From: an uncultured bacterium
GTDB lineage: Bacteria; Spirochaetota; JAHITG01
NCBI GenBank assembly: GCA_965373035.1
Contig: CBDVEP010000001.1
Coordinates: 272 to 64,271, forward strand
Length of the DNA: 64,000 nt
Direction of reading: 5' to 3'
This document shows, piece by piece, positions 7,609 to 58,656 of this stretch (position 1 is the stretch's first letter; each line of letters begins with the position of its first letter). The position numbers and the translations under genes are program-made. The notes under the pieces are model-generated. The model was given only the letters and a program-made list of their open reading frames with translations, ran no database searches and had not been told where the DNA came from.

Positions 7609-8103
7609 TTATAATTCAATGTTGAATTGTTTAACTTTTAAAATTTTCAATATTCGATAAAGTGATTCAATAGTAATATTAGTTTTGCCCTGTTCAATTC
7701 TTGAAATATCTGATTGCTTAAATCCTGTTCGTTTTGCTAAGTCTATCTGAGTCATGTCTTTTTCAATCCTTGCTTTTTTTATTTTCTTCCCTATATCTAT
7801 CAAAAGTTGGATAGGTTTATCAATAGGTTGCTTTTTAATTAATTGTTCATAAATTGTTTCCCACCATGCAAGGAAAGTAGTTGCATGTGCAGTTTTATTC
7901 CAATATTTTTTAATCTTTGGCCATGAATTAATAAATTTTTCCTTATCTATAACTGAAAAAACTTCTTCTGGTCTATCACAATGAGAAAGTAATGTAACAA
8001 TTCTTGTTAAAAATTTAGGATGTTCAGGGTCTGGCAAAATATAATTTACTGTTTCTATTTGCGCCTGCTTATTTAAATCCCAAAAATATTTCTTTAAACT
8101 CAT
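7609..8103 (-). CDS. HTH_XRE-domain protein (putative antitoxin/regulator partner of the upstream nucleotidyltransferase)
   Basis: C-terminal XRE helix-turn-helix (DMTQIDLAKRTGFKQSDISRIEQGKTNITIESLYRILKIL). 4-nt overlap with the upstream gene. Confidence 0.55.
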   Translation of the reverse strand: MSLKKYFWDLNKQAQIETVNYILPDPEHPKFLTRIVTLLSHCDRPEEVFSVIDKEKFINSWPKIKKYWNKTAHATTFLAWWETIYEQLIKKQPIDKPIQLLIDIGKKIKKARIEKDMTQIDLAKRTGFKQSDISRIEQGKTNITIESLYRILKILKVKQFNIEL

Positions 8104-8807
8104 GATATAACACTCTCCATGAATTTTTTTATTTCATCATCTAAATATTTAATCATTATCGAAGAATCAAATTTTTTATCATATATATCAAAATCTAATA
8201 TGTTTATTTTAAGCTCCTGCCTGGAATAACTTCTATACCAGTAAATTATTCCTCTCTGTTGTTCTCTGGGCATCTTTTTTAAAAATTGATGAATAGGTAT
8301 ATAATTTTTAGATAAATAGTAAATATCAATTATATCTTTTCCCTCATTACGTCTTGTTATTTTTTCCCTTCCGATATTATCTATTTTCAAACGAGTACCT
8401 GCAATAGCCATAATTTTCTGGTAATAAATATGTTCAATATCATAGACTGCAACCTTATTAAATATATTTATAGTAGGATCACGAAAAAACACATCTTCAA
8501 TAAAATCAATTTTAAAAGTTAAATCTTTTTCAATTTCTGTTATATAAAATTTAACTTTTGCTCTGTTATTAGTAGTAAATTCATTTTCTAATTTTAATTC
8601 ATTATTTGTGACTTTTTCAAATTTAGTAACCAGATTACTAATCTCATTTTCATTATATTCATGACTAAAAAAATCAAGATCTCTTGAAAATCTATGGTGC
8701 AAATAATAAAGATCTAATGCTGTTCCACCTGCAAGTGCAAAACTATTATTATGTAAAGAAAAAACATTTAAAATATCTAATTGCAATTTTTTAATTTTTT
8801 TTTTCAT
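8100..8807 (-). CDS. Nucleotidyltransferase, AbiEii/DUF1814-like toxin family
   Basis: N-terminal LAGGTALDLYYLHHRFSRDLDFF motif typical of AbiEii-type nucleotidyltransferases. Confidence 0.5.
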   Translation of the reverse strand: MKKKIKKLQLDILNVFSLHNNSFALAGGTALDLYYLHHRFSRDLDFFSHEYNENEISNLVTKFEKVTNNELKLENEFTTNNRAKVKFYITEIEKDLTFKIDFIEDVFFRDPTINIFNKVAVYDIEHIYYQKIMAIAGTRLKIDNIGREKITRRNEGKDIIDIYYLSKNYIPIHQFLKKMPREQQRGIIYWYRSYSRQELKINILDFDIYDKKFDSSIMIKYLDDEIKKFMESVIS

Positions 8808-9210: not shown

Positions 9211-10392
9211 ATGGTTAGATCTATTCTTGTTATTGATAATAAAGAATTAAATAATGTATTAAAAGAGGCTTTGCCAGGTAATGATTATAAAATTCTTTTT
9301 GCTGCAGATATAAAAGAAGGGTTGAATATTCTTGCTGAAGAAAAAATTCATTTAATGATATTAAATATGAAGATGCCTGGTATTGTTGAATTTGAGTTTT
9401 TACGTGAAATAAAATCAAAATATTTTTCATTAATAAAAGTAATATCTATATTAAATGAAGATGTAAAAGAAGATATTGTTATTCGCTCTATTACAGAAGG
9501 AATGGCAAAATCGTATATTACTAAACCATGGGATAACTCGTTATTAAAAAAACAAATTGTTTCCTTATTTGCCATGCAGGAGTCTTTAAATCAAAAAGAT
9601 TTACTGGAATTAATTAATAAAATTGACGAATTGCCTGTACTTCCTTTATTATATCAAAAAGTCATGAACCTTATTCAGCAGAATAAAGGGATCAATGAAA
9701 TAGCTGATGTGATTGAAAAAGAACCAGGATATGTAGCTAAAATAATAGGAATTGTAAATTCCGCGTTTTATGGAGGAAAGATCGGTTCTGTAAAACAAGC
9801 ACTCCTTTATCTTGGGACTAATACGATTAAGGATGTAATTCTCTTTGCTGATATTTTTGAATATTTCAGGCATGCTAAAATCAAAGCCTATGATATTAAC
9901 TTGCTCTGGAAACATTTTAATCTTTGCAACAAAATTATGCAGCATCTTTATTATAAAATTCATGGAAGAAAAATATTTGATAAATTTGCTTCAACAGGAT
10001 TATTACATGATATTGGTAAATTAATTATGTTGAAATATTTTCCTGAACAATTTCGGCAGATCTGGATAAAAAAAAATAAAAACCCTGACATTCCTTTTAC
10101 TGTCATTGAAAATGATATCTTAGGAGTATCACATACCCAGCTTGGAGCTTATCTTCTCAACTGGTGGAATCTCCCCAGCTATTTTATTGAAGTCTGCCTG
10201 TATCATCATAACCCTCTTAGTCAACAAATTGTTCATAGAGAATTAATATCCTTGATTCATATTGCTGATATTTATTCATGGAAAAAATTAAAAAAATTTT
10301 TATCAGTAAAAGTAATTCCAGAAGCCTATCAAATAGCCAATATTGATGAAGCAGCAGTTCAGGAAGTAGTTAATAAAGTAGATATAAATTAA
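9211..10392 (+). CDS. Response-regulator receiver + HDOD domain protein (atypical receiver, phospho-acceptor Asp replaced by Asn)
   Basis: CheY-like N-terminus in which the usual ..DLxxMP.. reads MILNMKMPG. HDOD signature (LPVLPLLYQKVMNLIQQ.., LLHDIGKLIM). Confidence 0.6.
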   Translation: MVRSILVIDNKELNNVLKEALPGNDYKILFAADIKEGLNILAEEKIHLMILNMKMPGIVEFEFLREIKSKYFSLIKVISILNEDVKEDIVIRSITEGMAKSYITKPWDNSLLKKQIVSLFAMQESLNQKDLLELINKIDELPVLPLLYQKVMNLIQQNKGINEIADVIEKEPGYVAKIIGIVNSAFYGGKIGSVKQALLYLGTNTIKDVILFADIFEYFRHAKIKAYDINLLWKHFNLCNKIMQHLYYKIHGRKIFDKFASTGLLHDIGKLIMLKYFPEQFRQIWIKKNKNPDIPFTVIENDILGVSHTQLGAYLLNWWNLPSYFIEVCLYHHNPLSQQIVHRELISLIHIADIYSWKKLKKFLSVKVIPEAYQIANIDEAAVQEVVNKVDIN

Positions 10393-10512
10393 AATACAGA
10401 ATCTGTGTACATCTGGCGGAAAAATTTCCATGAGTCATCTTTATGCAGATATAATTTATGCTCCTTGCAGCCGCTGCGGCTGCAAAGCTGGATAAAAAAG
10501 CATTTAAAAGCA
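10339..10512. repeat. Direct repeat copy A (~175 bp, ~93% identical to 12059-12245) flanking the DUF4143 ATPase insertion
   Basis: Includes the last ~50 nt of the HDOD gene plus the 3' end of a truncated copy of the convergent Cys-rich gene. Confidence 0.7.
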
Positions 10513-10528
10513 TAGACTAAATTATCAT

Positions 10529-11854
10529 CTAAGTTTTATAAAATTTTGGAAACAAAGAAATAGCATATAATGGAATATCACAAACATTCCTTGTTTGATT
10601 AAAATTCCTTTGAGATGTTCTTGTTAAATATTCAGGATTGTATTTTTTATCATAGACTTTTAAACTTTTAGCTTTAGTATTTAATCCTGATTTTACTTCT
10701 AATGGATATATTTTTTCATTATAACTCAATATGAAATCAACTTCTGCTGTATTTTTACTTGTCCAATAATATAATTCATTAAAATTATTTACTACTAATT
10801 CTTGTGCTGCATAATTTTCTGTAAAAGCACCATTATAAAATGTGAATAATTTATTACCGTCAATAATAGTCTTAGGAGATAAATTCAGCATTGCTCCAAG
10901 TAAACCAACATCAATTAAAAATAATTTGAAAAAATTATCATTTTTATATGCAGATAATGGCAATTTCGGAGTGGAAACATTATAAGATTTATATACAACA
11001 CCTGCATCAATTAACCATTGTATCGAGTCATGATACTCTCTTGATTTAGAATTTTTACTTATTTCAGAATATTTAAATTTTTTCTTTTCTTTAATTAATT
11101 GATTTGGAATTGAATTCCAGATATTATTTATTTTTATAGCTTCAGCCCTTGATGCATATCTTGTTACATCAATTGAATAAGCTGTTAATATTTCTTTTTG
11201 AATTTTTCTTACCGAAGTATAATCTTTAGTAGTAACATATTTCACTATAGCTTCCGGCATACCTCCAATATAATAATATAATTTCAGATATTCCAATAAT
11301 TTTTCATGGAAAGCTTCTGGTATTTCATCTAAATTTTTCTTGTTATCTAAAAACTTTTTTAATTGATTTTCTTTATTTGAATTTAAAAATTCACCAATTG
11401 ATAAAGGGAATAATTGCATAAAATTCACTTTCCCAACAGGAAATGAGGTCTTTTGATTTTTATATAAAAAAATCCCCAGTAATGACCCTGTAGCAATAAT
11501 ATGGTATTCATTATGGGTTTCATTAAAATATTTTAAACATGTTAATGTTTGAGGAGAATTCTGTATTTCATCAAATATAATTAATGTGTTTAAAGGTTCT
11601 ATTTTTTTATTTGAATAAATTGATAATTTTTCAATTATTTTTTCTGGATACTTTTTTCTCTGAAACAAGTTTATCAGATCAGGGTCTTCTTCAAAATTAA
11701 AATATACATAATTGACATATTCATTTTTACCAAATTCTTTTAAAATAAAAGTCTTTCCAACCTGTCTGGCACCTTTTAATATTAACGGTTTTCTATCTTC
11801 TGCATTCTTCCATACAATTAATTTATTATATATATCACGTTTTAAGCTTATCAT
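10529..11854 (-). CDS. AAA ATPase (AAA_14 + DUF4143 'ATP-binding protein' family)
   Basis: Walker A KGARQVGKTF and a DUF4143-type C-terminus. Paralog of 24806..26047. Confidence 0.75.
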   Translation of the reverse strand: MISLKRDIYNKLIVWKNAEDRKPLILKGARQVGKTFILKEFGKNEYVNYVYFNFEEDPDLINLFQRKKYPEKIIEKLSIYSNKKIEPLNTLIIFDEIQNSPQTLTCLKYFNETHNEYHIIATGSLLGIFLYKNQKTSFPVGKVNFMQLFPLSIGEFLNSNKENQLKKFLDNKKNLDEIPEAFHEKLLEYLKLYYYIGGMPEAIVKYVTTKDYTSVRKIQKEILTAYSIDVTRYASRAEAIKINNIWNSIPNQLIKEKKKFKYSEISKNSKSREYHDSIQWLIDAGVVYKSYNVSTPKLPLSAYKNDNFFKLFLIDVGLLGAMLNLSPKTIIDGNKLFTFYNGAFTENYAAQELVVNNFNELYYWTSKNTAEVDFILSYNEKIYPLEVKSGLNTKAKSLKVYDKKYNPEYLTRTSQRNFNQTRNVCDIPLYAISLFPKFYKT

Positions 11855-11892
11855 ACATATAAATTTAATACTAAAATTTAAAAAGTCAACTT
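11855..11892 (-). promoter_or_regulatory. Promoter of the DUF4143 ATPase gene (TTGACTTTTTAAA -35 box shared with the 24806 paralog; no SD, probably leaderless or very short leader)
   Basis: On the minus strand: aagTTGACTTTTTAAATTTTAGTATTAAATTTAT-ATG. Confidence 0.4.
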
Positions 11893-12058
11893 TTTTATAT
11901 GAAAAAGGTGTAAATTTATTACTTTATTCATATGAAAAAAGTGTATGTTTTAATATTTTTCCTCCTAAAAATATAAATGTTTCAATTACAGCTGGCTAAA
12001 AAATAAGGAAAAACACATAAAAAAGGTTTTAAACTCTCCTAACATGCTTTTTCGGTTT

Positions 12059-12245
12059 AATATTGATGAAGCAGCAGTTAAGGAAGTAGTTAATAAAGTA
12101 GATATAAATTAAAATATAGAATCTGTGTACATCTGGCGGAAAAATTTCCATGAGTCATCTTTATGCAGATATAATTTATGCTCCTTGCAACCGATACGGC
12201 TGCAAAATTGGATAATACTGTTTGTAAAAGCATTTAAAAGTACAG
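12059..12245. repeat. Direct repeat copy B (partner of 10339-10512)
   Basis: Same sequence as copy A with a ~12-nt indel. Overlaps the 3' end of the intact Cys-rich gene 12109..12585. Confidence 0.7.
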
Positions 12246-12585
12246 AAGGGGCACTACATTTAGGACAGTTATGCTCGACTTTCAGGACAAGGCTTTTCTT
12301 ACAATGTGGACAAAAAAATTCTACAATTATCTCTTTTTTATAATTAAACTGCTCTGGAAACTCAACCTTAAAATCATCCAGTTTATCAGAAAGAATAAAT
12401 ATACCATGTTTTTTATCATCCCATTTGCCCAGTAAAACTATCTCTCCTTTTTTATTAGTAAGGGCTGTATTACATTCCGGACATTTTGTCCATAATTTAA
12501 CATAAACACTATGACCTTTTTTTGCATAGGGATTATGTTCAATTGATACATATTCTTCTTTGTTTTTTAATTTTAGTTCCAGCAT
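12109..12585 (-). CDS. Cysteine-rich hypothetical protein (three CPxC-type pairs; putative zinc-ribbon protein)
   Basis: CPEC...CPHC...CPKC plus further Cys residues. No recognisable family. Confidence 0.35.
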   Translation of the reverse strand: MLELKLKNKEEYVSIEHNPYAKKGHSVYVKLWTKCPECNTALTNKKGEIVLLGKWDDKKHGIFILSDKLDDFKVEFPEQFNYKKEIIVEFFCPHCKKSLVLKVEHNCPKCSAPSVLLNAFTNSIIQFCSRIGCKEHKLYLHKDDSWKFFRQMYTDSIF

Positions 12586-12604
12586 TTCTTTGTTCTACCT
12601 CACT

Positions 12605-13960
12605 TTAAAGGAAATAATTTTTATAAAGTATTTGAACGGTCTCTTCCACATCATCCTGAGCTACACATAAAATAATACTAATTTCAGAGCCGCCTTTCAT
12701 AATCATTTTTATATCAATCTTCTTTTTATTTATAGCATCAAGCATAGAGACTAAAGAGCTGTTATCATCCTTTAACCCTTTACCAACAATTGAGATTAAA
12801 GCACGGTTATAATCAAAATAAACATTATCAGCCTTCATTTCATTATATACCTGTTTGCATATTTCTCTTATTTTCTCCAGTGGCAACTGGTCCTGTTTTA
12901 ATATTACTGATATACTGTCAATACCGGATGGAGAATGGTCAAAAGACAGTTTGTTTTTTTCAATAATTTCAAAAAGCCCCCTGCAGAATCCCTTTTCCTG
13001 ATTCATCATATATTTTTCAACATTAATAGTACAAAATCCTTTATCATAAGCTATTCCAACAATGCTTTTTTCTTTCAGATCCCTGTCCTTAACTATTAAA
13101 GTGCCTGGTTGGGCTAAGTCGTGAAAATTTATAAGATGTATGGGAATGCTCTTTTTCATCACAGGATGAAGCAGCTCCTCATGAAATGTCTTAAATCCTG
13201 CATAAGTAAGTTCTCTTAATTCCTGGTATGTAATTTTAGGAATCACCTTTGCATCAGGAACCAGTTTTGGATTAACTACTGTAAGACCATTATAATCAAT
13301 AAAATTTTCATATAATTCTGCATTAACTGCGTTTGCAAGTATAGAACCTGTCATATCATTTCCACCCCTGCTGAATGTAGCAATATGACCTTTTTTTGTA
13401 TAACCGAAAAATCCTGGAATTATAATAATACCTTCTCTATTTTTTAATAATTCTAACTTATTATATGAATCATCTATAAGTGAAGCACAGCTAAAATCCG
13501 TTGTAACAATCAATCCTGCATCATGAGGGTCAACATACTGGCAGGAAACTCCTTCATTCTGCAGGTACTCAACAACCAGACGTGCGCTGTATTCTTCACC
13601 AGCGGATTTGACTTTATTCAGATACCTTGCTTCTTTCCCCCTGGAAGTGCTGATACGCTTTTTCAAATCCTGAATGTATCTATTTACAGACCTGCTGGAT
13701 ATTTTCAAGCCATGGTAGATATTATCAAACCGCTTTTGTATCTGTTCAATTAATAACACAGGTAATTTTTTATTTTTTATATAATATTGTGCACATTCTA
13801 TCAGCATATCAGTCATATTCTCTTCAGTATCTGTTTTCCCGGGTGCTGCCATAACAACTATCTTTCTCTTTTCATCAGCCAGAAGTATCTTCTTAAGCTG
13901 TTTGATATGTTCAGATGCTGTTAATACATTCCCGCTGAATTTACACACTTTAATACTCAT
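12605..13960 (-). CDS. Aspartate kinase (amino-acid kinase fold + C-terminal ACT domains)
   Basis: N-terminal KFSG..VVMAAPGKTD kinase motif region. C-terminal ACT-like segment ..ISIVGKGLKDDNSSLVSMLDAINKKKIDIKMI... Confidence 0.55.
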   Translation of the reverse strand: MSIKVCKFSGNVLTASEHIKQLKKILLADEKRKIVVMAAPGKTDTEENMTDMLIECAQYYIKNKKLPVLLIEQIQKRFDNIYHGLKISSRSVNRYIQDLKKRISTSRGKEARYLNKVKSAGEEYSARLVVEYLQNEGVSCQYVDPHDAGLIVTTDFSCASLIDDSYNKLELLKNREGIIIIPGFFGYTKKGHIATFSRGGNDMTGSILANAVNAELYENFIDYNGLTVVNPKLVPDAKVIPKITYQELRELTYAGFKTFHEELLHPVMKKSIPIHLINFHDLAQPGTLIVKDRDLKEKSIVGIAYDKGFCTINVEKYMMNQEKGFCRGLFEIIEKNKLSFDHSPSGIDSISVILKQDQLPLEKIREICKQVYNEMKADNVYFDYNRALISIVGKGLKDDNSSLVSMLDAINKKKIDIKMIMKGGSEISIILCVAQDDVEETVQILYKNYFL

Positions 13961-14170
13961 CTACCTTTTCTCCTAAAGTATTTATAACTGAAACAGTACC
14001 GCCCAAAATATTTGGTATTATCCAATTTCATTCCTCCAGTCATAATTATCCGTCAAATATAATATACAAAATTTTACTGTCAATTTTTAATTCATAATAA
14101 TCATTTAAATTTTATAAAATCTTGGAAATAATGAAATAGCATAGCAAAGTAAACTTAAAAACCAATAAAT

Positions 14171-14253
14171 AAAGAATGGGGACGGTTCTAATACTTTTTT
14201 ACAACATCTATTTTTTCTCTTTCTAAAAAGTATTAGAACCGTCTCCATTCTTT
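14171..14253. repeat. Long near-perfect inverted repeat (29-bp arms, 24-nt loop) containing the TGGGGACGG box
   Basis: AAAGAATGGGGACGGTTCTAATACTTTTTT ... AAAAAGTATTAGAACCGTCTCCATTCTTT, with a single G·U position. Related half-copies occur at ~16262 and ~18299. Confidence 0.6.
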
Positions 14254-14299
14254 TTACTTGATTTTATTTTTCTTGTTGCTATAATTAAAATAATATAAA

Positions 14300-14695
14300 A
14301 TGAATAAAAAAGATTTAATTAAATATTGGATTAAAAGTTCTGATCAAGATATAAAGGCAATGGATCATTTGTTTAATAATAAAGATTATCATTGGTCATT
14401 ATTCCTAGGGCATTTAGTAATTGAAAAACTTCTTAAAGCATATTATGTTAAGAAACAAAATAATAATGCACCACCTATACATAATTTATTAAGAATAGCT
14501 GAAAAATCAAAATTAAAAATTGATAACCAACAAGAAGATTTACTCGCAACATTATCTACTTTTAATATCCGAACGAGATATGATGATTATAAATTAGAAT
14601 TTTATAAAATGTGTACTAAAAATTTTACAGCAAACTGGCTCAAGCAAATAAAAAGGTTTCGAAAATGGATAAAAAAAAAATTATCAGATCAATAA
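14300..14695 (+). CDS. HEPN-domain protein (HEPN/MNT toxin-antitoxin pair)
   Basis: Size and context. Overlaps a minimal nucleotidyltransferase gene. Confidence 0.5.
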   Translation: MNKKDLIKYWIKSSDQDIKAMDHLFNNKDYHWSLFLGHLVIEKLLKAYYVKKQNNNAPPIHNLLRIAEKSKLKIDNQQEDLLATLSTFNIRTRYDDYKLEFYKMCTKNFTANWLKQIKRFRKWIKKKLSDQ

Positions 14696-14973
14696 AAGGG
14701 TATATTGCCTTACTAAAACAAAATAAATATGCCATCCAAAAAGTATACCTATTCGGATCAATTATAAAAGGGAAAAGTCATAAAGATAGTGATATTGACA
14801 TAGCTGTTATAATAAAAAATTTAACAAACAGTTTTAACACTCAAGTACAATTAATGAAATTAGTAAAAAATATCGATTCCCGTATTGAACCTCATCCATT
14901 TGATGAAAAAGCTTTTAACTCTTCAAATCCCTTTGCTGCAGAAATTATTAAAACTGGAAAACAAATTATATAA
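14665..14973 (+). CDS. Minimal nucleotidyltransferase (MNT) partner of HEPN
   Basis: VYLFGSIIKGKSHKDSDIDIAVII (GS..DxD nucleotidyltransferase motif). Confidence 0.6.
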   Translation: MDKKKIIRSIKGYIALLKQNKYAIQKVYLFGSIIKGKSHKDSDIDIAVIIKNLTNSFNTQVQLMKLVKNIDSRIEPHPFDEKAFNSSNPFAAEIIKTGKQII

Positions 14974-14986
14974 AAAGAAGAAAAGA

Positions 14987-15100
14987 ATGTATTTGTTTGG
15001 TTCATTTTTACATAAAAATAATTTTTATTGCAACTCTGATATTGATATAGCAGTTGAGGGTAACTTCTCAAAATTCCTCCCGTCAGTGACGCATTACTGA
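14987..15100 (+). pseudogene. Truncated second MNT copy (38-codon fragment)
   Basis: MYLFGSFLHKNNFYCNSDIDIAVEGNF then stop. Overlaps/abuts the full MNT gene. Confidence 0.4.
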
Positions 15101-15154
15101 AAATTAAAATTTATTGACAACTGATTAAAAATGGTAAAATTATAAAAAATGAGA
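15097..15154 (+). repeat. ~58-bp repeat carrying a TTGACA / TG-n-TAAAAT promoter-like module (copy 1; copy 2 at 18390-18451)
   Basis: Identical 44-mer TTATTGACAACTGATTAAAAATGGTAAAATTATAAAAAATGAGA in both copies. Copy 1 is preceded by a solo TGACGCATTACT, the MITE TIR sequence. Confidence 0.55.
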
Positions 15155-15434
15155 ACATGATCTTTAGTCATAATTTAATAACCTAATATTTAAGCCTATA
15201 AATAAATTTTATAGACAGCCAACGTAACAGAAGTTTTATAATATTTAATCCAATACTGAAATATAATATAAAATTTTTTACTGTCATTTTCAATTGTATT
15301 TTAAACTATAATATGACAAATTAATTTGACAGTCCATGATAAATAATTATTATATAATAATAAACAAATTTTTTAAAAAAAATTACTTTTCATATAAATT
15401 TTATTAAATAATACTCTATTTTAAGAAGGAAACC

Positions 15435-15767
15435 ATGAAAAATAAATATATTTATAATAATCATACACAAAAAAATTTCAAAAAAATTATATACTGTAGC
15501 CTTTTTTATTTTATTTTCAACATGGTATTACAAGCTCCAGTATACAGTAAAGTTGAATTTTGTGATCCTAATGTTGGCTGGGGGCCAATTTCTAAGCCTG
15601 GAAAAAATCTATTACTTGAAGAATTTGAAGATGCATTAAAATGGAATTCATGGGTTTTTAAAAATGAATCACTCAAATTAAAAAATGTAAAAGGCCTTTC
15701 TGGTAATGCATTAAGAATAGAATACAACATACCAGATGATAGTGCATTTAGACAATTATCTGAGTAA
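15435..15767 (+). CDS. Hypothetical secreted protein, N-terminal part (possibly one gene with 15736..16236, disrupted by a frameshift)
   Basis: Signal peptide (KKIIYCSLFYFIFNMVLQAPVYS). Stops at 15767 while an overlapping ORF continues in another frame. Confidence 0.3.
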   Translation: MKNKYIYNNHTQKNFKKIIYCSLFYFIFNMVLQAPVYSKVEFCDPNVGWGPISKPGKNLLLEEFEDALKWNSWVFKNESLKLKNVKGLSGNALRIEYNIPDDSAFRQLSE

Positions 15768-16236
15768 AACTGATTATAAAATAAAAAAAATATTATTTTA
15801 TGGAGAAAAAACACCTTGGACAGAACAATCTAGTCCAGATATTCAATATAATATTTCTATAAAAAATAAAGCAATAAAAATAGATTATCAAACAGGTAAA
15901 GCTGGTGCATGGACTCAGATATCTATAGACGCACAAAATAAAATTCATAAAAACAGTATCTTTTATATAAAATTAAAATCAACACAGGACCCAAATGCAA
16001 ATTTAGAAATAAAAATCATGGCTGAAGATGGTTCTGTATTTATGAAAAAAATACTATGTAAAAATTTATCAAAAAAATGGAAAAATATAAAATTTAGAAT
16101 AAAAGATTTTAATTATGTCTGGGGAGGAAATAATGATATCGATAAAATTAAATTTCTACAAATTGCTATTGCTACCTTATCAAAAACATCAGGCTCAGTT
16201 TCTATTAAAGAGATAAAAAAGTCAAATAGTAATTAA
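15736..16236 (+). CDS. Hypothetical protein (likely C-terminal part of the secreted protein above)
   Basis: Overlaps the previous ORF by 32 nt in a different frame. No recognisable family. Confidence 0.3.
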   Translation: MIVHLDNYLSKTDYKIKKILFYGEKTPWTEQSSPDIQYNISIKNKAIKIDYQTGKAGAWTQISIDAQNKIHKNSIFYIKLKSTQDPNANLEIKIMAEDGSVFMKKILCKNLSKKWKNIKFRIKDFNYVWGGNNDIDKIKFLQIAIATLSKTSGSVSIKEIKKSNSN

Positions 16237-16329
16237 ATAGAGATAAATTAACACTATATATAAAGTTGGGGACGGTGCAAAACAATATAAACTAATAATA
16301 TTTTGCCACAAATTTGTAACACCTGCCGA

Positions 16330-16565
16330 AGGTGGAAAGATGAAGAATATGATTTTTTATATAGAACATATATAATACAGGTAAAATAATTACCATAGGG
16401 CCATGGGAATTAAAAGGAGGAAATGAAAATATAGCTAAAAAACTATTTGTTTCTGCTCTTTCAAATCTGAGACCCAGGAAAAAAATATTTTTAGACGTAC
16501 CTTCAACAAACAAAACAGCAAACAAGATATTAACCAGACACAATTTTATAGTTAGAAGAATATGA
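16330..16565 (+). pseudogene. Decayed fragment copy of the C-terminus of the GNAT gene at 36040..36915
   Basis: Translation GKIITIGPWELKGGNENIAKKLFVSALSNLRPRKKIFLDVPSTNKTANKILTRHNFIVRRI* compared with ..GKIITIGPWELKGGDEDIAEKLFVSSLSNLKSGKKIFLDIPSTNKTAKKILTRHNFII.. of the intact gene. The near-identical antisense ORFs 16292..16543 and 36143..36334 in the track reflect the same duplication. Confidence 0.7.
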
Positions 16566-16659
16566 AATTACTTATAAGGATATTTTAGCAGTATTAGATT
16601 ATGCTGCAAAAATTTTATCTAATGAAGAAGTTAGAGCTGTAGGATAAAAAGTATTATAA

Positions 16660-17469
16660 TTATTTCAAAACTATCTTATTCTTCTTCAATAATGAAGATA
16701 TAATATCAGAAGCATTGCTGATTAATTCTGCATCATGCTCATCAAAGAGAAAAGGTCTGAGCTGCTCTGCCTGCTTTTTTAATTCTCCTTTTGAAAGACT
16801 TTGTATTCTTTTTATAATAATATTTTCAGGTTTATCTTTAATGCCCAGTATAGAAAGAATATGTTTATCCACAGGATGCTTATTTGAAAGCATAAAAATA
16901 ATATCATATAAATGCCGTGCCCTATTCTTTTTAACAAGAGCATCTATTTTATTAGCAAAAAGTATAGCATTATTTGTACATATACAGGGATAAATTTCTC
17001 CAAATCCGGATATACCTTTAGATTCTTGTATAACTTTCCATTTAGGCAGATTGGTTTCTAATTTAATAATTATTCCCGTTTTTTTTGAGTATTTTGATAC
17101 GATATTATAAAATTTCTCTATTGCTGGGAATATTAACTTTGAAACATACATATTATCCCAATGTGAAAATTGAACTGATGATTCTATGCCTTTTCGCTGT
17201 AATTCTTTTACTACTTTATATAAAAGATTTTCAAATTCTTTTTTAGAAATTTTATTTGCATAAAAATCTAAATCTTCTGAAAATCTTTTACTATTGTAAA
17301 TAAGTCTGAGATAAGTACCCCCTGTAAAAAAAAGTTTTTTACCTGAAGGTGTTCTATAAATTTCTTTTAAAATAAGAACATGGAGGTATTCTCTTAATAT
17401 TCCTCTTGTTTTTGTAACTGGCATTTGACGCAATCTTGCCTGTTCTATTAATGCATCATAAGTAAGCAT
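16660..17469 (-). CDS. Nucleotidyltransferase AbiEii/AbiGii toxin (type IV TA)
   Basis: KLFFTGGTYLRLIYNSKRFSEDLDFY motif. Overlaps the upstream AbiEi-like gene by 14 nt. Confidence 0.65.
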   Translation of the reverse strand: MLTYDALIEQARLRQMPVTKTRGILREYLHVLILKEIYRTPSGKKLFFTGGTYLRLIYNSKRFSEDLDFYANKISKKEFENLLYKVVKELQRKGIESSVQFSHWDNMYVSKLIFPAIEKFYNIVSKYSKKTGIIIKLETNLPKWKVIQESKGISGFGEIYPCICTNNAILFANKIDALVKKNRARHLYDIIFMLSNKHPVDKHILSILGIKDKPENIIIKRIQSLSKGELKKQAEQLRPFLFDEHDAELISNASDIISSLLKKNKIVLK

Positions 17470-18064
17470 TTAATTCCTCTAATTTAAGATTATACTGTTT
17501 TATATATTTTTTTAATTTTTTTTTATTAAAAGAAGAAATTATATCAAAGTCTAATCGTTCTTCTTGTAAGTTAAATTTTTTATTTCGGTATGTTTTAAAG
17601 TAAATAAAATCTATAAGAGCTTTTTCCGGTTCAGCAATAAAAATTTCAAACTTTCCTTGTTTTTCAATATAGTATCCTGTAAAAAATTCAGGTCTAAGAG
17701 TATGGTATATAAAAAGACCGTGAACATTTTTAAATTGGCGTGTGGGTTTTGTAGTGATAGAAGTTACAGCCATGGATACTTCCGGGATGATACTGTAATT
17801 TGACAAAGCTGTTTCTAATGACACATAAGAGGGGCTGTACAATTTGTTGGCAATATACATATCCGGGATAATATACTCATCAGGATAGGTAAGTTCATAT
17901 AATCCTTTTTTTAAAGAGCGAATCCAATTTTTTTGTTTCCATCTATAAAGCATTTGCTTAAGATTTTGCTTGTTTTCATTATAATAAAGTGTTAATAAGT
18001 CTTCAAATGAAAAAACATAATATTTGTTTTTGATTATATCTTTATATAACTGTTTAAAATTCAT
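17456..18064 (-). CDS. AbiEi-family antitoxin / transcriptional regulator
   Basis: Positioned immediately upstream of and overlapping AbiEii. AbiEi-like size and the RSLKKGLYEL motif. Confidence 0.55.
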   Translation of the reverse strand: MNFKQLYKDIIKNKYYVFSFEDLLTLYYNENKQNLKQMLYRWKQKNWIRSLKKGLYELTYPDEYIIPDMYIANKLYSPSYVSLETALSNYSIIPEVSMAVTSITTKPTRQFKNVHGLFIYHTLRPEFFTGYYIEKQGKFEIFIAEPEKALIDFIYFKTYRNKKFNLQEERLDFDIISSFNKKKLKKYIKQYNLKLEELNAYL

Positions 18065-18389
18065 TTCAGATAATATACTTTTTTGTTAACTATCTGAAAT
18101 AAACATATTATTTTTTATAATTATGTCAAGTAAAAAGATTTGAAACATCCTGTTCAATAGAGCCACAACGGAATTAATGAAGAAATGAGAAAGATTCTTA
18201 AGGTGATTTTGCAATCGCTTTTCTTATGTTTTTAAAACATATTTATATTTTAGCCCGATTATTATAAAAGTCAAGTTTTGTTTCTATCGTGTTTATTTGA
18301 AAAATGGGGACAGATCCTATTTTTTTCTATTTTTTTATGTCAAAGTAAAAAGTAAAGACCCGATATTTTCCTGATTTTCCTTGAATCCG

Positions 18390-18451
18390 GTGAAAAATTA
18401 ATAAATTTATTGACAACTGATTAAAAATGGTAAAATTATAAAAAATGAGAA
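18390..18451 (+). promoter_or_regulatory. Copy 2 of the TTGACA/extended -10 repeat, positioned as the promoter of the MBL-fold gene
   Basis: Identical 44-mer at 18408-18451. The gene's ATG is at 18474. Confidence 0.5.
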
Positions 18452-18473
18452 AAGGAAATTTTTATATATAAAA

Positions 18474-19085
18474 ATGAAAATTAAAATTATATATGATAAC
18501 AATGCCCAAAAAGGATTTAAATCAGGTTGGGGATTTTCTTGTGTAATTGAAAATAAAGAAAAAGTTTTGTTTGATACCGGAGCGGATGCTAAAACCTTAC
18601 TTTATAATATGAACCAATTAAAAATAGACCCTAAAGATATAGATATTGTTATTCTTTCACATTCACATGGAGATCATACCGGAGGATTAAGAGGATTTTT
18701 AGAATTAAATGGTAATAAAGCAAAAGTATATCAACCAAAAGCTTTTTTAAAGCCAACTCAAATTTGTGGAGATGTTTATTCAACAGGGGCTTTAGGCGAT
18801 TTTTTAGGTATAGCAGAACAATCTCTGGTAGTAAAAACAAAAAAAGGCAATATTGTTATTACAGGATGCGCTCATCCTGGTGTAGAAAATATTATTGAAA
18901 AAGCAAGAACATTAGGAAAAATTTATGGTATAATTGGTGGTTTTCATGGATTTTCAAAATTGGAGAAGCTTGAGGGGATTGAATTAATTGCTCCTTGTCA
19001 CTGTACGCAGCATATCCAAAAAATAAAAGAAAAATATCCTGTAAACTATACAGAAATTAAAGCAGGCTCTGTAATTAAAATTTAA
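18474..19085 (+). CDS. MBL-fold metallo-hydrolase (small archaeal-type family)
   Basis: ILSHSHGDHTGG motif. N-terminal IIYDNNAQKGFKSGWGFSCVIE pattern. Confidence 0.6.
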   Translation: MKIKIIYDNNAQKGFKSGWGFSCVIENKEKVLFDTGADAKTLLYNMNQLKIDPKDIDIVILSHSHGDHTGGLRGFLELNGNKAKVYQPKAFLKPTQICGDVYSTGALGDFLGIAEQSLVVKTKKGNIVITGCAHPGVENIIEKARTLGKIYGIIGGFHGFSKLEKLEGIELIAPCHCTQHIQKIKEKYPVNYTEIKAGSVIKI

Positions 19086-19194
19086 AATTATAGAGGTAGA
19101 TTTTCACTTGAATTCTCGAATCCCAGAATCCTTGAATCCTTTGCCTTGCGTAGCCAGGCTTATCTTGTGTTATTAGATAAATATAGAGATAAAT

Positions 19195-20133
19195 ATGGAA
19201 ATTGAAATCCTGGGAGCAGAATCTTTAGGGGTTAGAGGCTTATGCTGTTTTATAAAAACTAAAAACAAAAAGATATTAATTGACCCGGGAATAGCATTAG
19301 GTTATCAAAGACATGGATTACTTCCTCATCCTTTTCAGATAGCAGTAGATGAAAGAATACAAAAAAAAATTTTAGATAGATGGAAAGAAGCTACGGACAT
19401 AATTATAAGCCATTTTTATGGAGACCACATCCCTTTAAAAAATGCAAATCCTTTTCAGCTCAGTTTAAAAAAAGTTGAAGTAAAACGAGATGCAAATTTT
19501 TGGTGCAAAGGATCTGATTCTCTTTCTCCAACCATGCTTGAGCGTTATAAAGATTTATCAAAAATTTTTAAGTTAAAAAATGCGCAAGGTAAAAATTATA
19601 AACTTTTAAGTTTTTCCAGACCGGTTCCTCATGGAGAAGCAAATAATAATTCTGATACAGTTATGATGACCAGAATCAAGGATGAAAATTTTACATTTGT
19701 GCATGCCTCGGATATTCAACTTCTTAACAATAAAGCAATTGATAAAATATTATCATGGTCTCCGGATATAGTACTGGCAGGCGGTCCTCCCCTTTATTTA
19801 TCTGAATTTTCTGAAAATCAAATTAAGAAAGCATGGCATAATGCCAAACGGCTTTCCTGTAAAGTTGATATTTTAATTCTTGACCATCACCTAATGAGAA
19901 ATCTTAAAGGACTCAAGTGGTTAAAACGCCTATCCCTTGAAACAGGCAAAAAGGTTATTTGTGCGGCTGATTTTATGAAAAAACCCAGAATGCTCCTTGA
20001 AGCCAAACGCGAGCAGTTGTATAAAGATATGCAGGTTCCTGAAGGATGGCATAAAGATTATGCAAAAAGTAAAGTCAATACTAAATCTTATTGGAATAAG
20101 GCTTTAAAACTTTACAAAATGTTAAAATTATAG
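19195..20133 (+). CDS. Hypothetical metal-dependent hydrolase (MBL-like HFYGDH motif; UPF0282-like)
   Basis: ILGAESLGVRGLCCFIK..DPG.. and SHFYGDHIP motif. Low-confidence family call. Confidence 0.35.
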   Translation: MEIEILGAESLGVRGLCCFIKTKNKKILIDPGIALGYQRHGLLPHPFQIAVDERIQKKILDRWKEATDIIISHFYGDHIPLKNANPFQLSLKKVEVKRDANFWCKGSDSLSPTMLERYKDLSKIFKLKNAQGKNYKLLSFSRPVPHGEANNNSDTVMMTRIKDENFTFVHASDIQLLNNKAIDKILSWSPDIVLAGGPPLYLSEFSENQIKKAWHNAKRLSCKVDILILDHHLMRNLKGLKWLKRLSLETGKKVICAADFMKKPRMLLEAKREQLYKDMQVPEGWHKDYAKSKVNTKSYWNKALKLYKMLKL

Positions 20134-20232
20134 AACTAACAGTTAAGGAAAAGGCTGGGGCATGAGGATTAATAAAAAATATATTGAATTTATTTTAAAT
20201 GTTAATTTTTTATAAAAATTTTTAATAAAAAG

Positions 20233-20275
20233 ATAAGGGTCAACTGTTTTGAACAGTTGCCCCTTATCTTTCTTT
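20233..20275. terminator. Bidirectional intrinsic terminator between the convergent MBL-like gene and glnK
   Basis: 14-bp stem ATAAGGGTCAACTG / CAGTTGCCCCTTAT (one mismatch), loop TTTTGAA, T-runs on both sides. Confidence 0.55.
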
Positions 20276-20617
20276 TTAACCTATGGCTGCTTTACCTGTC
20301 TCTCCTGTACGAATTCTAATTACTTTTGGTAAATCCAATATGAAAATTTTTCCATCTCCGATTTTGCCTGTTTTGGCTCCTTCTATAATCGCATCAATTG
20401 TTTGCTGGACAAACTCATCATTTATTGCTATTTCCAATCTGGTCTTTTTTAACAGGTTAATATCTGTAATAACACCTCTATAGGTCTCAGTGAATCCTTT
20501 TTGCTGTCCACAGCCTAATGCTGTGGATACAGTCATTTTATGGATATCAGCTTCAAATAAAGCTGCTTTAACATCTTCCAGTTTATGAGGCTGTATCAAT
20601 GCAATAATTAACTTCAT
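20276..20617 (-). CDS. glnK: PII nitrogen regulatory protein GlnK (amtB-linked)
   Basis: PII fold signature (T-loop region ..GQQKG..RG.., GDGKIF). Immediately downstream of amtB. Confidence 0.85.
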
Positions 20618-20634
20618 ATCCTTTGTACCTCCTT

Positions 20635-22005
20635 TTAATTAATTATTTGAAATCCACCGTAGGATTCCATGCCATGTTCTCCAATATCCAGTCCTTTCAA
20701 TTCTTCTTCCTTGGTTACACGAAGTCCTATGGTATATTTTATACTGAGAAACAATACTGTTGCTGCTGCAATTGTCCATCCAGCCACAGCAAGAACACCA
20801 ATTGCCTGAATACCAAGCTGATGAGTCCCTCCTCCGAAAAATAAGCCATTAACAGCACCAAATCCAGATGCCTGTGCATAAGAGGCCTCTGCAAATAAAC
20901 CCACAGCTAAAGTACCCCATACTCCATTTATTCCATGTACTGAAACAGCACCAACAGGATCGTCAATTTTTAATACCTTGTCGAAAAACTCAACTGACAA
21001 TACAACCAGTACTCCTGCAATAGCTCCGATAATAACAGAGCTGACTGGTGATACAACTGAACAGGGAGCTGTAATTGCAACAAGTCCTGCTAATGCACCA
21101 TTCAATGACATTGACACATCAGGCTTTCCATTAAGTACCCAGACAGTACACATAGCTAAAATAGCGCCAGCTGCTGCTGCAAGATTGGTAGTCATGGCAA
21201 CATGTCCGATAATATCACTATAGCCTAAAGTACTACCAGCGTTAAATCCAAACCATCCAAACCACAATAAAAATACTCCTAATGCAGCAAGAGGAATACT
21301 GTGTCCTAGTATTGCTTTTGCCTTTTTATTTTTATCATATTTACCTAATCTTGGGCCTAAAACTAATGCTCCTACTAAACCAACCCATCCGCCAACTGAG
21401 TGAACAACTGTTGAACCTGCAAAATCAATCATGCCTAACTTGGAAAGCCAGCCGCCACCCCATATCCAATGTCCGGATACAGGATAAATCACCAGGCTTA
21501 TTACAAAACTAAAGATCAGATAACCAACAAACTTGGTTCTTCCTGCCATAGCTCCTGATACAATTGTAGCAGCAGTTGCAGCAAATACAACCTGAAAAAA
21601 CCATGAGGCATATTCCCATAATCCTTCATTTGTAGCAGGATTGGCTGAGCTTAAAAAAAAGTTGCTTGCACCAAATAAGCCACCCAGTTTGCTTGTTCCA
21701 TACATAATTCCATAACCAACAGCAAAATAAGCTATAGAACCTATGGAAAAATCCATTACGTTTTTCATAAGAATATTACCGGCATTTTTTGCCCTGGTAA
21801 ATCCAGTTTCTACCATTGCAAAACCAGCCTGCATCATAAATACTAAAAACCCGGCAACTAAAAGCCATACAAAGTCAATAGGCAAATGTGCTGGTGCAGA
21901 TGATGCTTCTTCTTCAGCAAAAAGCATTCCTGCAGAAAAAAGTAAAGTGAAAAGAATCATCAATGAAATGATTTTAGTTGAATTTTTAAAAAACTTTTTT
22001 ACCAT
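20635..22005 (-). CDS. amtB: Ammonium transporter AmtB
   Basis: Signal peptide followed by a typical Amt/MEP 11-TM core (..[14 protein letters not shown].., ..GFNAGS..). Confidence 0.85.
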
Positions 22006-23489: not shown

Positions 23490-23925
23490 TCATTTCCATG
23501 GTCCATGAGCTTTCCATGTTTCGTTAAACTTATAATCCTTCTTGATTGCATCAAGTGGCTTAATAAGAAACCTTTCTATCTCCTTTGCTGTAGTAGACAA
23601 CTTTTCAGGTGCATGTTTAATATCTCCCTTTTTCAAAAATGCATTCCAAAGTATTTGGCGATCCGATTTTTCATCATAGATTTCTTCAGCAAATAATGGG
23701 CTATCCTGCGGAAAAGGAGTCTTACGATGCTTAAAAGTTCTTCTTAACGCTTCGGCAAGTTGAAATCCATTAAAATTGAACTGGCGCATCATTAGCCATA
23801 TATCATAGAAATCTTTCCATACCATAATACTGCAGAATTTCTGAAAATGAACGATTAGTTTCTTTAGCTTTATTTTGGAGCCGGGCTCGTACAGAAGCTT
23901 GTAAATTCTTGATATCTTTTTTCAT
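23490..23925 (-). pseudogene. Degraded AbiEii toxin gene (N-terminal 40 codons, stop, then C-terminal 111-codon ORF in another frame)
   Basis: MKKDIKNLQASVRARLQNKAKETNRSFSEILQYYGMERFL* starts at 23925, overlapping the AbiEi stop. An AbiEii C-terminal-like ORF 23490..23825 follows. Confidence 0.5.
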
Positions 23926-24524
23926 AGCATAGTCTCAAGTATTGGTTTTATGATATTATCAACACGGCAAATCTTGGCATATTGCATTATTTCTTTTGGT
24001 TTTACATTCTTTTCCGTAACAGCTACTTTAAGAGCTTCCCGTATAATGTTCATCCCGAGTTTATTACGGAATTTAAAACAATCCGCAATCGTCTTGGCAA
24101 GATTATAAACCTTGATTTTATAACCTTCTATTTTGTGTTCTTCAATTCCAGCCTCCCATGGTTTAGGACCAAAACGGTAAAATCTAACTGGAGGATATTT
24201 GATTCTATAAGCATGAGTACCCCGTGGAATAGCTATGTCCACATACTTAGGGATTTCAGTTGTTGCCTCATGAAAAGAAAGAGCAGAGAGAAGACAGATA
24301 ACTCCCCGGGGAGCCTGAAAAGATACAGCAACAAGGTCAGGATGGATCCCGGCAGTATAATTAGTCAGCTTGTAAAGTCCCCTGGCAATCTTTTCAACTT
24401 TCTTCTCTTTCTCAAGAGTGTTAAGTGAATCGGGATGAAATCCAGCTTTTAGAATAGCTGAAAACCTGACCACTCCGCCATTACTCTGGAAAAAATTTAT
24501 AAGTCCTTGTGTTTTTCTTTGCAT
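23922..24524 (-). CDS. AbiEi-family antitoxin domain protein (probable start at internal Met; long ORF extends to 24656)
   Basis: RGLYKL.. wHTH-like N-terminus from MQRKTQGLINFFQSNGGVVRFSAIL. Directly upstream of the AbiEii remnant. Confidence 0.5.
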   Translation of the reverse strand: MQRKTQGLINFFQSNGGVVRFSAILKAGFHPDSLNTLEKEKKVEKIARGLYKLTNYTAGIHPDLVAVSFQAPRGVICLLSALSFHEATTEIPKYVDIAIPRGTHAYRIKYPPVRFYRFGPKPWEAGIEEHKIEGYKIKVYNLAKTIADCFKFRNKLGMNIIREALKVAVTEKNVKPKEIMQYAKICRVDNIIKPILETML

Positions 24525-24771
24525 ACTGCCTCCGTATAATATTGTAACATTTATGAATAAGTATATATAATTTATACGAAAATGTAAAATATTTTTTTTA
24601 AACGTCAAATTCAGGGTTTCTTGAATCTCGTAATGCGAAAAAATTTTATCCGTCAATAAGCTTTTACCCTATCGGGTATCTGTGATCTATCATAAGTGTG
24701 AAATAAACTATTTACAGAAACAGGTGTAGAAGTAAGCTTTCCACCTTATAATAAAACAATGTAAATTTAAA

Positions 24772-26047: not shown

Positions 26048-26169
26048 TAAAAACAGAGAAAAATAATAGCAATTTGCTTATTAAAAAATTATAGCTATTT
26101 AATTTAAAAAATGTATTTTATAATAACACAATTATAATATAGTAATTTTGCATTAATAAGGAGGCGTTT

Positions 26170-27080: not shown

Positions 27081-27589
27081 GTTCTATTCTCCTTTAAAAA
27101 ATAGAATAGTAGACTGCTAAAACAAGGATTATATAAAAAGAACAATGATTATCCAACCAGTAATTGTATCACCCTACTTTTTATAACAGTGTTAAATTCT
27201 CCTTTAAGCATAGCTTCATTTACATTAGTATTTCCTTCAACTCTATCAAGTAGTCTAACAGCATAATATCTATCAGAGTAACCAATTCCCAAAAAAACAA
27301 TTTACCCTTGAAGCCCTCCTGAAATAAAAAGAGAGATATTAATATCTCTCTTTTTATAATATTAATGTAAGGATTAACATAGGAATGTCAAGTATATTAT
27401 CTCTAAATTTTGACCATTTCACTTAATGTTTAGCAGATTAAAAGAAGTTGACAAATAAATACTAATAGTATTAATGAATTAAAAAACAAGTTAAATGATT
27501 GATTGTAAATATTTCATTCCATCAGAAGAATATACAGCGATGAAACAGCAGATTGTTATGCAAAAAGATATTACAAAAATAGTTACCTG

Positions 27590-58422: not shown

Positions 58423-58656
58423 ATTTTTATCCTTATATTATATTTCGATTTATCGACTAAATTAGTCTTATGGTCTATAATATAATCCCTTTTTATTATT
58501 GTGTCAAGCTTTTTTTTAATTACTTTTATGATGGAATTAAAATTGACAATAAAAAATTTTATATTATATTTCAGTATTGGATTAAATATTATAAAATTTG
58601 TATGTAGGATTGCTTAAAAAATTTATTTACGAATTGTAGGATTAGGTTGTTGAATT

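Follow-up and report, generated by a model that had tools for sequence, protein, structure and literature searches.

How single defence genes come to appear in bacterial chromosomes and move there, with no mobile element that can be recognised, is poorly understood. Transposons are marked by a transposase, inverted-repeat ends and target-site duplications (TSDs) of 2–15 bp, integrative elements by an integrase and, in the usual case, a tRNA gene as target. The subject of this study is a PDC-S01-type ATPase gene that lies between long direct repeats in a 64-kb window (the whole stretch of 64,000 nucleotides analysed, from contig CBDVEP010000001.1 of an uncultured bacterium of the Spirochaetota). 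The closest described systems are the insertions with long target duplication (ILTD) of restriction-modification (RM) and Type IV nuclease genes (Nobusato et al. 2000, Gene 259:99; Furuta, Abe & Kobayashi 2010, PMC2853133). There, RM systems or the solitary mcrA nuclease gene stand between long target repeats of variable length without mobile-element genes, the repeats often span start or stop codons and leave the neighbours intact, and DNA breakage has been suggested as the common factor (PMC2853133, PMC2993543).

PDC-S01 is a single-gene 'phage defence candidate' in which an ATPase is fused to a PD-(D/E)XK domain, and it has been reported to rank fourth in frequency among the defence-type systems of prokaryotes (PMC12988326). 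The C-terminal part, DUF4143/COG1373, is catalogued within the PD-(D/E)XK superfamily (PMC3424549). A PDC-S01 gene tested in E. coli gave no protection against T4, T5 or T7 (bioRxiv 10.1101/2024.09.26.614923).

The locus resembles ILTD in that a defence or nuclease gene, with neither transposase nor integrase, is placed between long direct repeats of host sequence whose length varies, that the repeats span stop sites and leave the neighbours intact, and that the insert is lower in GC. It differs in its cargo, a PDC-S01 ATPase-nuclease with no methyltransferase and not an RM system, the resemblance being one of function, and in a second, interleaved repeat pair and a short scar that point to a trimmed, kilobase-scale tandem duplication including two housekeeping genes. 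With transposon TSDs and the attL and attR sites of integrative elements it shares direct host repeats flanking an accessory gene, and a 3'-end duplication that leaves its targets whole; unlike a transposon or integrative element, it has no transposase, inverted repeats, integrase or tRNA, and its repeat is ~180 nt long. Tandem duplication with reciprocal loss gives the same interleaved order (A B A' B'), in which each gene is kept once and pseudo-copies keep both ends, but the usual reports of that process do not concern single genes or a link to defence, and here the result mimics a transposon-like insertion.

The flanking repeat is probably not a TSD made by a hopping gene. Its likeliest origin, at about even odds, is a local tandem duplication of ~3.6 kb that two deletions cut back to the ~180-bp repeat, and the locus thus follows a pattern known from restriction genes and does not represent a novel type of transposon. 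The preserved scar and source remnant offer a testable hypothesis on how long target duplications around defence genes form. A transposon-like picture can stem from tandem duplication plus reciprocal deletions, which calls for caution where mobile elements are called from flanking repeats. PDC-S01, very common and uncharacterised, also joins AbiE and Schlafen-like modules in a long-target-duplication pattern so far described for RM genes.

A duplicated gene junction and an interleaved second repeat

The ATPase gene is bracketed by two copies of the junction between convergent genes, a response-regulator/HDOD gene on one side and, on the other, a gene for a Cys-rich protein paired with an aspartate kinase (AK) gene (Table 1). 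A repeat search of the window aligned 10339-10513 with 12059-12233 without gaps (175 nt, 93% identity), and gapped alignment with MAFFT and BLAST lengthened the pair to 10339-10516 and 12059-12246, with one 10-nt deletion (TACTGTTTGT) in copy A. By our own count, 10339-10510 and 12059-12240 differ by seven substitutions and one 10-nt deletion over 172 aligned nt, while blastn-short gave 95.5% identity over the first 157 nt. Overall the repeat measures 172–188 nt at 93–96% identity, exceeding the 30-bp criterion for direct repeats, and is the longest within the 64 kb, where it has two copies only; its 41-nt core occurs exactly twice in the window and not once in 100 shuffles. Positions 10511-10516 are better read as belonging to CATAGACTA(A), the end of the AK block, than to copy A. 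A first-pass annotation had described this as a direct duplication of the convergent junction, with the true HDOD stop in copy A and the true Cys-rich 3' end in copy B, had placed exactly one ATPase gene with its own promoter between the copies, and had considered the repeat too long for a transposon TSD. All of this holds on alignment, at an identity well above 80%: the 1.54 kb between the copies contains a single open reading frame (ORF; 10529-11854) behind TTGACT-16-TAAATT, and the ~180-nt repeat is accompanied by no transposase.

Because the C-terminus of the Cys-rich protein (12109-12585) is conserved to its last residues in seven homologues, the repeat must be regarded as coding sequence of the host, as opposed to a repetitive element. 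The convergent stop codons overlap by 2 nt, the HDOD-equivalent stop occupying 12110-12112 and the Cys-rich stop 12109-12111. Compared with the related strains L008, L009 and L010, both copies have three derived sites in common, and the duplication therefore arose within this lineage and was not imported. A dispersed element and a terminator were considered as identities for the repeat and are ruled out by the presence of two copies only in the 64 kb, the conserved coding sequence and the lack of a terminator-like site. Copy A also contains a perfect 10-bp palindrome (10465-10485; TTGCAGCCGC T GCGGCTGCAA), which in the functional copy B (12185-12205) is weakened by four clustered substitutions that alter the protein from SRSG to SRIG.

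A second direct repeat, of 48 nt, joins the ATPase gene to the far side of the AK/Cys-rich block. The sequence at 14096-14143 (tB) is 88% identical to 10520-10567 (tA) and covers the last 13 ATPase codons and 9 nt of 3' flank, both copies ending alike 9 nt past the stop codon; an 11-codon 3' remnant noticed here in the first-pass annotation is thereby confirmed, and tblastn matches it to ATPase residues 430–440. The block has the AK promoter at ~14050-14083 and extends to ~14095; tB begins within 1–2 nt of the block end, with a 5-nt difference, at a position where homology also breaks in L008 and L012. The junction of AK, tB and the hairpin that follows is found again in an independent contig, L011, at 99.7% identity. 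At the other end, the joint between copy A and tA reads AAAAG / CATAGACTA / AATTATCAT, where copy B and all related strains carry on with AAAAGTACAGAAGG. Within this scar, CATAGACTAA is the sequence found at the upstream end of the AK block (block M) in L012, which argues that an AK block, now lost, once stood before the left ATPase copy and left its last nucleotides on the 3' side of that gene; the scar 10-mer occurs once in the window, with 0.16 expected. The divergence of the two repeat pairs (7–9 of 172–178 nt for the junction, 6 of 48 for the ATPase end) is compatible with one age (p = 0.10). Comparison of 14144-14300 with the spacer upstream of the ATPase gene gave a weak A-rich match only. 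The hairpin itself (14171-14253; 29-nt arms, 97% complementary, with a 25-nt loop) stands directly after tB and upstream of a HEPN/MNT pair; it was rejected as an attC site or repeated miniature inverted-repeat transposable element, being single-copy in the window and, by eye, unmatched to the attC motifs.

The two pairs are interleaved, with copy A (10339-10510) followed by tA and the ATPase gene, copy B (12059-12246), the Cys-rich and AK genes and finally tB (14096-14143), or J tT J M t in shorthand. This is the order predicted for a decayed tandem duplicate and supports tandem duplication. We infer the order and nature of the events as follows. The HDOD and Cys-rich/AK genes would at the start have been convergent neighbours, and a horizontally acquired PDC-S01 gene with its own promoter and operator boxes would have stood directly upstream of the AK promoter, in the same direction, at what is now a strain-variable breakpoint. 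The unit comprising junction, Cys-rich, AK and ATPase genes would then have been duplicated in tandem, via unequal exchange or re-integration of a circle; it would have measured ~3.58 kb, from a left edge 54 nt inside the HDOD gene to a right edge ~200 nt upstream of the ATPase start. A ~1.85-kb deletion would have stripped the Cys-rich and AK genes from the left copy, joining copy A to the ATPase gene via the scar CATAGACTA, and a deletion of at least 1.49 kb would have stripped the ATPase gene from the right copy, leaving the 48-nt remnant. The net effect would be an exchange of order between the defence gene and the AK/Cys-rich operon with every gene intact.

Table 1. Features of the locus, in window coordinates.
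Feature	Coordinates	Strand	Description
Response-regulator/HDOD gene	9211..10392	+	From the ORF list; Pfam Response_reg and HDOD; true last 54 nt within copy A
Repeat copy A	10339..10510		True HDOD 3' end, then the final ~120 nt of the Cys-rich gene as a truncated, frameshifted pseudo-copy; 10-nt deletion
Proposed deletion scar, CATAGACTA(A)	10511..10520		Identical to upstream end of the AK/Cys-rich block in L012 (AATTCATAGACTAATG)
tA, last 13 ATPase codons plus 9 nt of 3' flank	10520..10567	-	Reference copy of the 48-nt repeat
PDC-S01-type ATPase gene	10529..11854	-	441 aa; AAA+ ATPase (AAA_14), winged-helix region, C-terminal PD-(D/E)XK-like DUF4143
ATPase promoter (TTGACT-16-TAAATT, probably leaderless) and two operator-like boxes	11862..11950	-	Kept with the gene in relatives
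Non-coding spacer upstream of ATPase regulatory region	11951..12058		Right end, 12058/12059, is the putative tandem-duplication joint
Repeat copy B	12059..12246		Final 54 nt of the HDOD gene as a pseudo-copy, then the 46 codons that form the true Cys-rich 3' end
Cys-rich zinc-ribbon-like gene (12109-12585) and aspartate kinase gene (12605-13960)	12109..13960	-	Conserved pair
tB, ATPase 3' remnant (..AISLFPRFYKI*) plus 9 nt flank	14096..14143	-	Directly abuts the AK-upstream block end

Breakpoints among strains and bracketed loci elsewhere

Short contigs from strains ~91–93% identical to this one show that the neighbours of the AK/Cys-rich block M (~12099-14095) vary on either side. At its upstream end the block adjoins the P-II terminator in L008 (window ~20235), an AbiEii gene in L012 (window 23480) and, in the window, tB on the side of the HEPN island. 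All three contexts break at the same nucleotides, ...AATTCATA/ (window ~14088-14096; L008 ~1921; L012 ~1881), the breakpoint reading ...TTGACAGT as the -35 and then AATTCATA/, at the upstream end of the AK promoter region. The 6.1 kb at window 14097-20234, with HEPN/MNT, AbiE and two metallo-beta-lactamase (MBL)-fold genes, is missing between P-II and AK in L008, a contig that stops 13 nt past the Cys-rich gene. On the other side of the block, the Cys-rich gene is joined in L009 to the 3' end of the gene at 19195-20133, and in L010 to the last five HDOD codons. These variable joints mark the region as a rearrangement hotspot. The single junction of L010 aligns to both repeat copies (92.9% and 82.8%), the first 31 nt of the repeat being deleted there along with most of the HDOD gene. 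Related genomes were expected to show the two genes adjacent without an ATPase; in L010 the HDOD tail does adjoin the Cys-rich gene with no ATPase gene, but with most of the HDOD gene gone this is not a clean empty site, and none was recovered among related contigs and homologue loci. A scan of the genome collection with the HDOD protein gave no close relative, only one at 27%, and exact look-ups of window proteins found none on record. The closest HDOD homologue (61%, L094) has different neighbours, and Cys-rich homologues at 63–80% retain the AK/Cys-rich pair only.

Self-BLAST was run on each of 80 metagenomic loci with family members and on the locus of a homologue 80% identical to the ATPase. 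Direct repeats bracketed 4 of 84 family genes, compared with 5 of the 374 remaining ORFs at these loci (p = 0.06), and were found at none of the 15 viral-contig loci; a flanking duplication is therefore rejected as a hallmark of the family. The second DUF4143 gene of the window (24806-26047) has no flanking duplicated host sequence. Among family loci, L022 has a 151-nt repeat at 88% identity, with the genuine 3' terminus of a convergent S41 peptidase gene in its downstream copy, L079 a 148-nt repeat at 95%, and L014 a duplicated junction of two convergent genes that runs into the contig end.

Unrelated modules are bracketed in the same manner, which together with the counts above means that the bracket is not DUF4143-specific. 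An AbiEi/AbiEii pair at L035 lies between 108-nt repeats (93.5%), and in an adjoining pseudo-copy of the neighbouring C1-peptidase gene the body is deleted while 108 nt at the 3' end and 32 nt of 5' upstream sequence survive, the same signature of a whole-gene duplicate later hollowed out. At L013 a Schlafen/AlbA_2 gene is bracketed by 143 nt, and the 5' region of an RM gene is duplicated with an internal deletion. A segment containing HEC-01A is bracketed at L069, as is an unknown ORF at L024. Within the window, a 59-nt repeat (15107-15165 and 18403-18461, 49 nt identical) corresponds to the promoter region of the MBL-fold gene at 18474 and brackets 3.2 kb with two unknown ORFs and an AbiEii-type toxin gene and partner (16660-18064). 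The insert termini of the window, L013 and L022 have nothing conserved in common beyond the gene and its operator boxes. That PDC-S01, AbiE, Schlafen-like and HEC-01 genes were all relocated by one duplicative process, leaving neighbour-end duplications of 60–190 bp that were originally of kilobase scale, is an unlikely generalisation; if true, it would extend the ILTD of restriction genes to defence islands, possibly triggered by nuclease-made DNA breaks, and would make the present locus, which retains both the scar and the source remnant, an unusually informative fossil of the process.

Beside the 80%-identical ATPase homologue, L013 also contains a long one-directional array of small genes (11400-21326), with acetyltransferases, AadA_C, Antibiotic_NAT, methyltransferases, PIN, Polbeta and AbiEii, which resembles a chromosomal integron cassette array.

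Alternative origins of the bracketed gene

The first-pass annotation had attributed the duplication to insertion of the ATPase gene between adjacent genes. This is not supported: the scar CATAGACTA, which matches the far end of the AK block, and the position of tB on that same end favour a trimmed tandem duplication. Also counted for the latter are the hollowed pseudo-copy at L035, the RM gene 5' region duplicated with an internal deletion at L013, and the lack of any transposase, integrase, terminal inverted repeat or tRNA nearby. Other observations weigh against it. Three events are needed after acquisition; one deletion endpoint has to lie only 9 nt from the ATPase 3' flank, for which selection against a stray AK promoter is an assumed reason; the scar, just 9–10 nt in length, was recognised after the fact. 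Neither an AK gene with an intact ATPase gene behind it nor a full tandem duplicate occurs in any related contig, and L008 and L012 have other neighbours at the breakpoint. The inserts at L022, L079 and L014, moreover, are compact single-gene inserts bracketed by 140–190-nt repeats with no detectable interleaved remnant, which looks more like a true insertion with long target duplication. An ILTD in the strict sense is a possible, if rather doubtful, origin of the present locus: an ATPase-only fragment with 9 nt of AK-side flank would have been copied from a site upstream of AK into the HDOD/Cys-rich junction, repair or replication would have doubled the ~188-bp target, either by filling in staggered breaks or by template switching, and the source copy would later have been deleted down to tB. 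This requires fewer events than the tandem duplication, has a counterpart in the compact architecture that recurs in the family (L022, L079, L014), and agrees with most of the criteria of Furuta et al. 2010 for RM genes (PMC2853133), in that the repeat spans gene stop sites with both targets intact and is unique in the sequence, and that the insert is below 20 kb and has no mobility genes; the insert also encodes a predicted nuclease, the common factor suggested by Kobayashi's group. However, ILTD has no established mechanism, and alone it does not predict that a single neighbouring block should supply both target duplication and donor flank, which is the case here and in L035. Nor was a clean empty site found, and bracketing is not significantly commoner for the family than for other ORFs of the same loci (4/84 against 5/374, p = 0.06).

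The remaining accounts have the gene arrive on a circle, move itself or arise in assembly. Campbell-type integration, in which a circle with the ATPase gene and a ~190-bp copy of the junction (e.g. from a related cell) enters by a single homologous crossover, always yields insert-flanking direct repeats of variable length; the repeats across loci do range from 60 to 190 nt or more, and the ATPase segment, at 23–26% GC, lies below its neighbours at 30–32%. It is nevertheless very unlikely: both copies carry the derived sites of this lineage, to which the donor would have to belong, no plasmid or phage context was found (15 distant matches among 2.9 million viral contigs), and tB and the AK-end scar are unexplained unless the circle was the whole unit of junction, Cys-rich, AK and ATPase genes, which would be the tandem duplication reached by another route. 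We find it highly improbable that the DUF4143 ATPase-nuclease mobilises its own gene by a very long staggered cut, with the repeat as a true TSD. The protein does combine an AAA+ ATPase, a DNA-binding winged helix and a PD-(D/E)XK nuclease motif, tA and tB share an end 9 nt after the stop codon, and four family members are bracketed; yet ~95% of the examined family loci have no bracket, repeat lengths and insert ends are not uniform, no sequence is common to the insert ends between loci, the L022 insert holds a foreign gene fragment, unrelated defence modules (AbiE, Schlafen-like, HEC-01) are bracketed likewise, and the two paralogues of the window are just 23% identical. An assembly artefact might be suspected from the source, an 82.8-kb metagenomic contig, and from the breaking of related contigs at the repeat (13 nt beyond the Cys-rich gene in L008, inside their own repeats in L014 and L079), but is hardly credible. 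The copies differ by seven substitutions and an indel while sharing lineage-specific sites, a chimeric join cannot yield an insert-flanking duplication, the AK/tB/hairpin junction is present in the independent sample L011 (99.7%), and an independent Logan assembly contains the identical ATPase protein.

The PDC-S01 gene and its genomic setting

The ATPase protein matches PADLOC PDC-S01 (PDLC04786) over its full length (residues 3–436, E = 2.5e-168), and Pfam finds AAA_14 (3.7e-27) followed by DUF4143 (2.4e-36). Invariant in an alignment of 30 homologues are the Walker A motif GARQVGKT, Walker B DE95-96, E371/D373 and E386-x-K388, and neither in domain order nor in the Walker and PD-(D/E)XK residues is there any protein-level difference from PDC-S01 (COG1373). 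An AlphaFold2 model (predicted local distance difference test, pLDDT, 78.5) gave Foldseek matches to PAB2304, Orc1/Cdc6 and STAND ATPases, while a sequence search of the PDB with the PDC-S01 family matched no solved structure. The gene is accordingly presented here as an anti-phage defence candidate encoding a predicted ATPase-nuclease. Its closest homologues are 80% and 70% (P0035) identical and the remaining ones, from Elusimicrobia, Aminicenantes, Thermodesulfobacteriota and others, at most 63%, a patchy, cross-phylum distribution such as is usual for defence genes that move horizontally; viral contigs rarely carry the family, and its neighbours include AbiE and HEPN/MNT modules. Of the earlier description of the gene as a mobile singleton, the part that stands is thus a patchy, horizontally moving family with its nearest relatives in other phyla, and a self-made 175-bp TSD is not supported.

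The promoter-like site TTGACT-16-TAAATT ends 7 nt before the ATPase ATG, and two operator-like boxes, ACACCTTTTTCATA..., stand upstream 33 nt apart (box form CACnTTTTTCATATGAAAAAnGTG). PDC-S01/DUF4143 genes of several phyla have two to four such palindromic or half-palindromic boxes, CAC[G/A/C]TTTTTC-ATAT-GAAAAAnGTG, spaced ~32–33 nt, at 11891-11950 on the minus strand in the window and in the upstream regions of L013-L093; examples are TCACATTTTTCATATGAAAAACGTGA in L025, four times TCACGTTTTT in L021 and four times ATTCGTCAGAAAAAGTGTG in L072 and L088. The final box of the array overlaps the -35 or extends to the start codon. The array is probably an operator for the protein's own winged helix or a set of Orc-like recognition boxes, and as a conserved feature it offers a handle on PDC-S01 regulation or DNA recognition.

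The second DUF4143 gene was correctly noticed in the first-pass annotation as having the same TTGACTTTTTAAA box; its start lies 6 nt past TATAAT, and it too is a full-length PDC-S01 match in PADLOC (E = 5e-111). With the two proteins only 23% identical, the gene counts as an old paralogue, and the reading of the pair as recent copies of one element is rejected. Some 1.4 kb downstream of it, in non-coding DNA behind glnA, 27448-27495 repeats 25237-25284, a 48-nt internal piece of the gene (codons ~145–160), at 90–95% identity, and appears to be a small relic of a lost family copy. In L012 (1-430, against window 24806-26143; strain ~93% identical) the gene is reduced to its promoter and first 114 nt, which an unrelated stretch of 222 nt separates from the downstream region, and the presence of this second copy is therefore polymorphic.

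The window is AT-rich chromosomal DNA (~27% GC) whose nearest named relatives are metagenome-assembled genomes labelled 'Spirochaetes bacterium'. It contains housekeeping genes (sigma factor, FloA/NfeD, HydF, aspartate kinase, amt/P-II, GlnA, GOGAT) and defence-type modules, namely AbiE-like ones at 7609-8807, 16660-18064 and 23490-24656, HEPN/MNT at 14300-14973 and the two PDC-S01 genes. Pfam scans found no integrase, recombinase or transposase within the 64 kb and no phage genes in or next to the insert, the 64 kb contain no tRNA, and there are no inverted repeats at the insert ends.

The Cys-rich protein (~158 aa) has two CxxC pairs, a conserved C-terminal FCSRxxCKEH..DDSW motif and no Pfam family. 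Its gene always comes directly after that for aspartate kinase in relatives (L002-L008), amid nitrogen-assimilation genes (amt, P-II, GDH, GlnA, GOGAT), and the protein looks like an uncharacterised partner of the ACT-domain aspartate kinase. Lastly, a promoter- or leader-like sequence of ~70 nt, ..ATTGACA(A/G)TAAAAAATTTTATATTATATTTCAGTATTGGATTAAATATTATAAAA.., occurs at 58534-58600 (+) and 15200-15295 (-), the AK promoter (14059-14096, -) matches its first ~38 nt, and this repeat may be a shared regulatory element.

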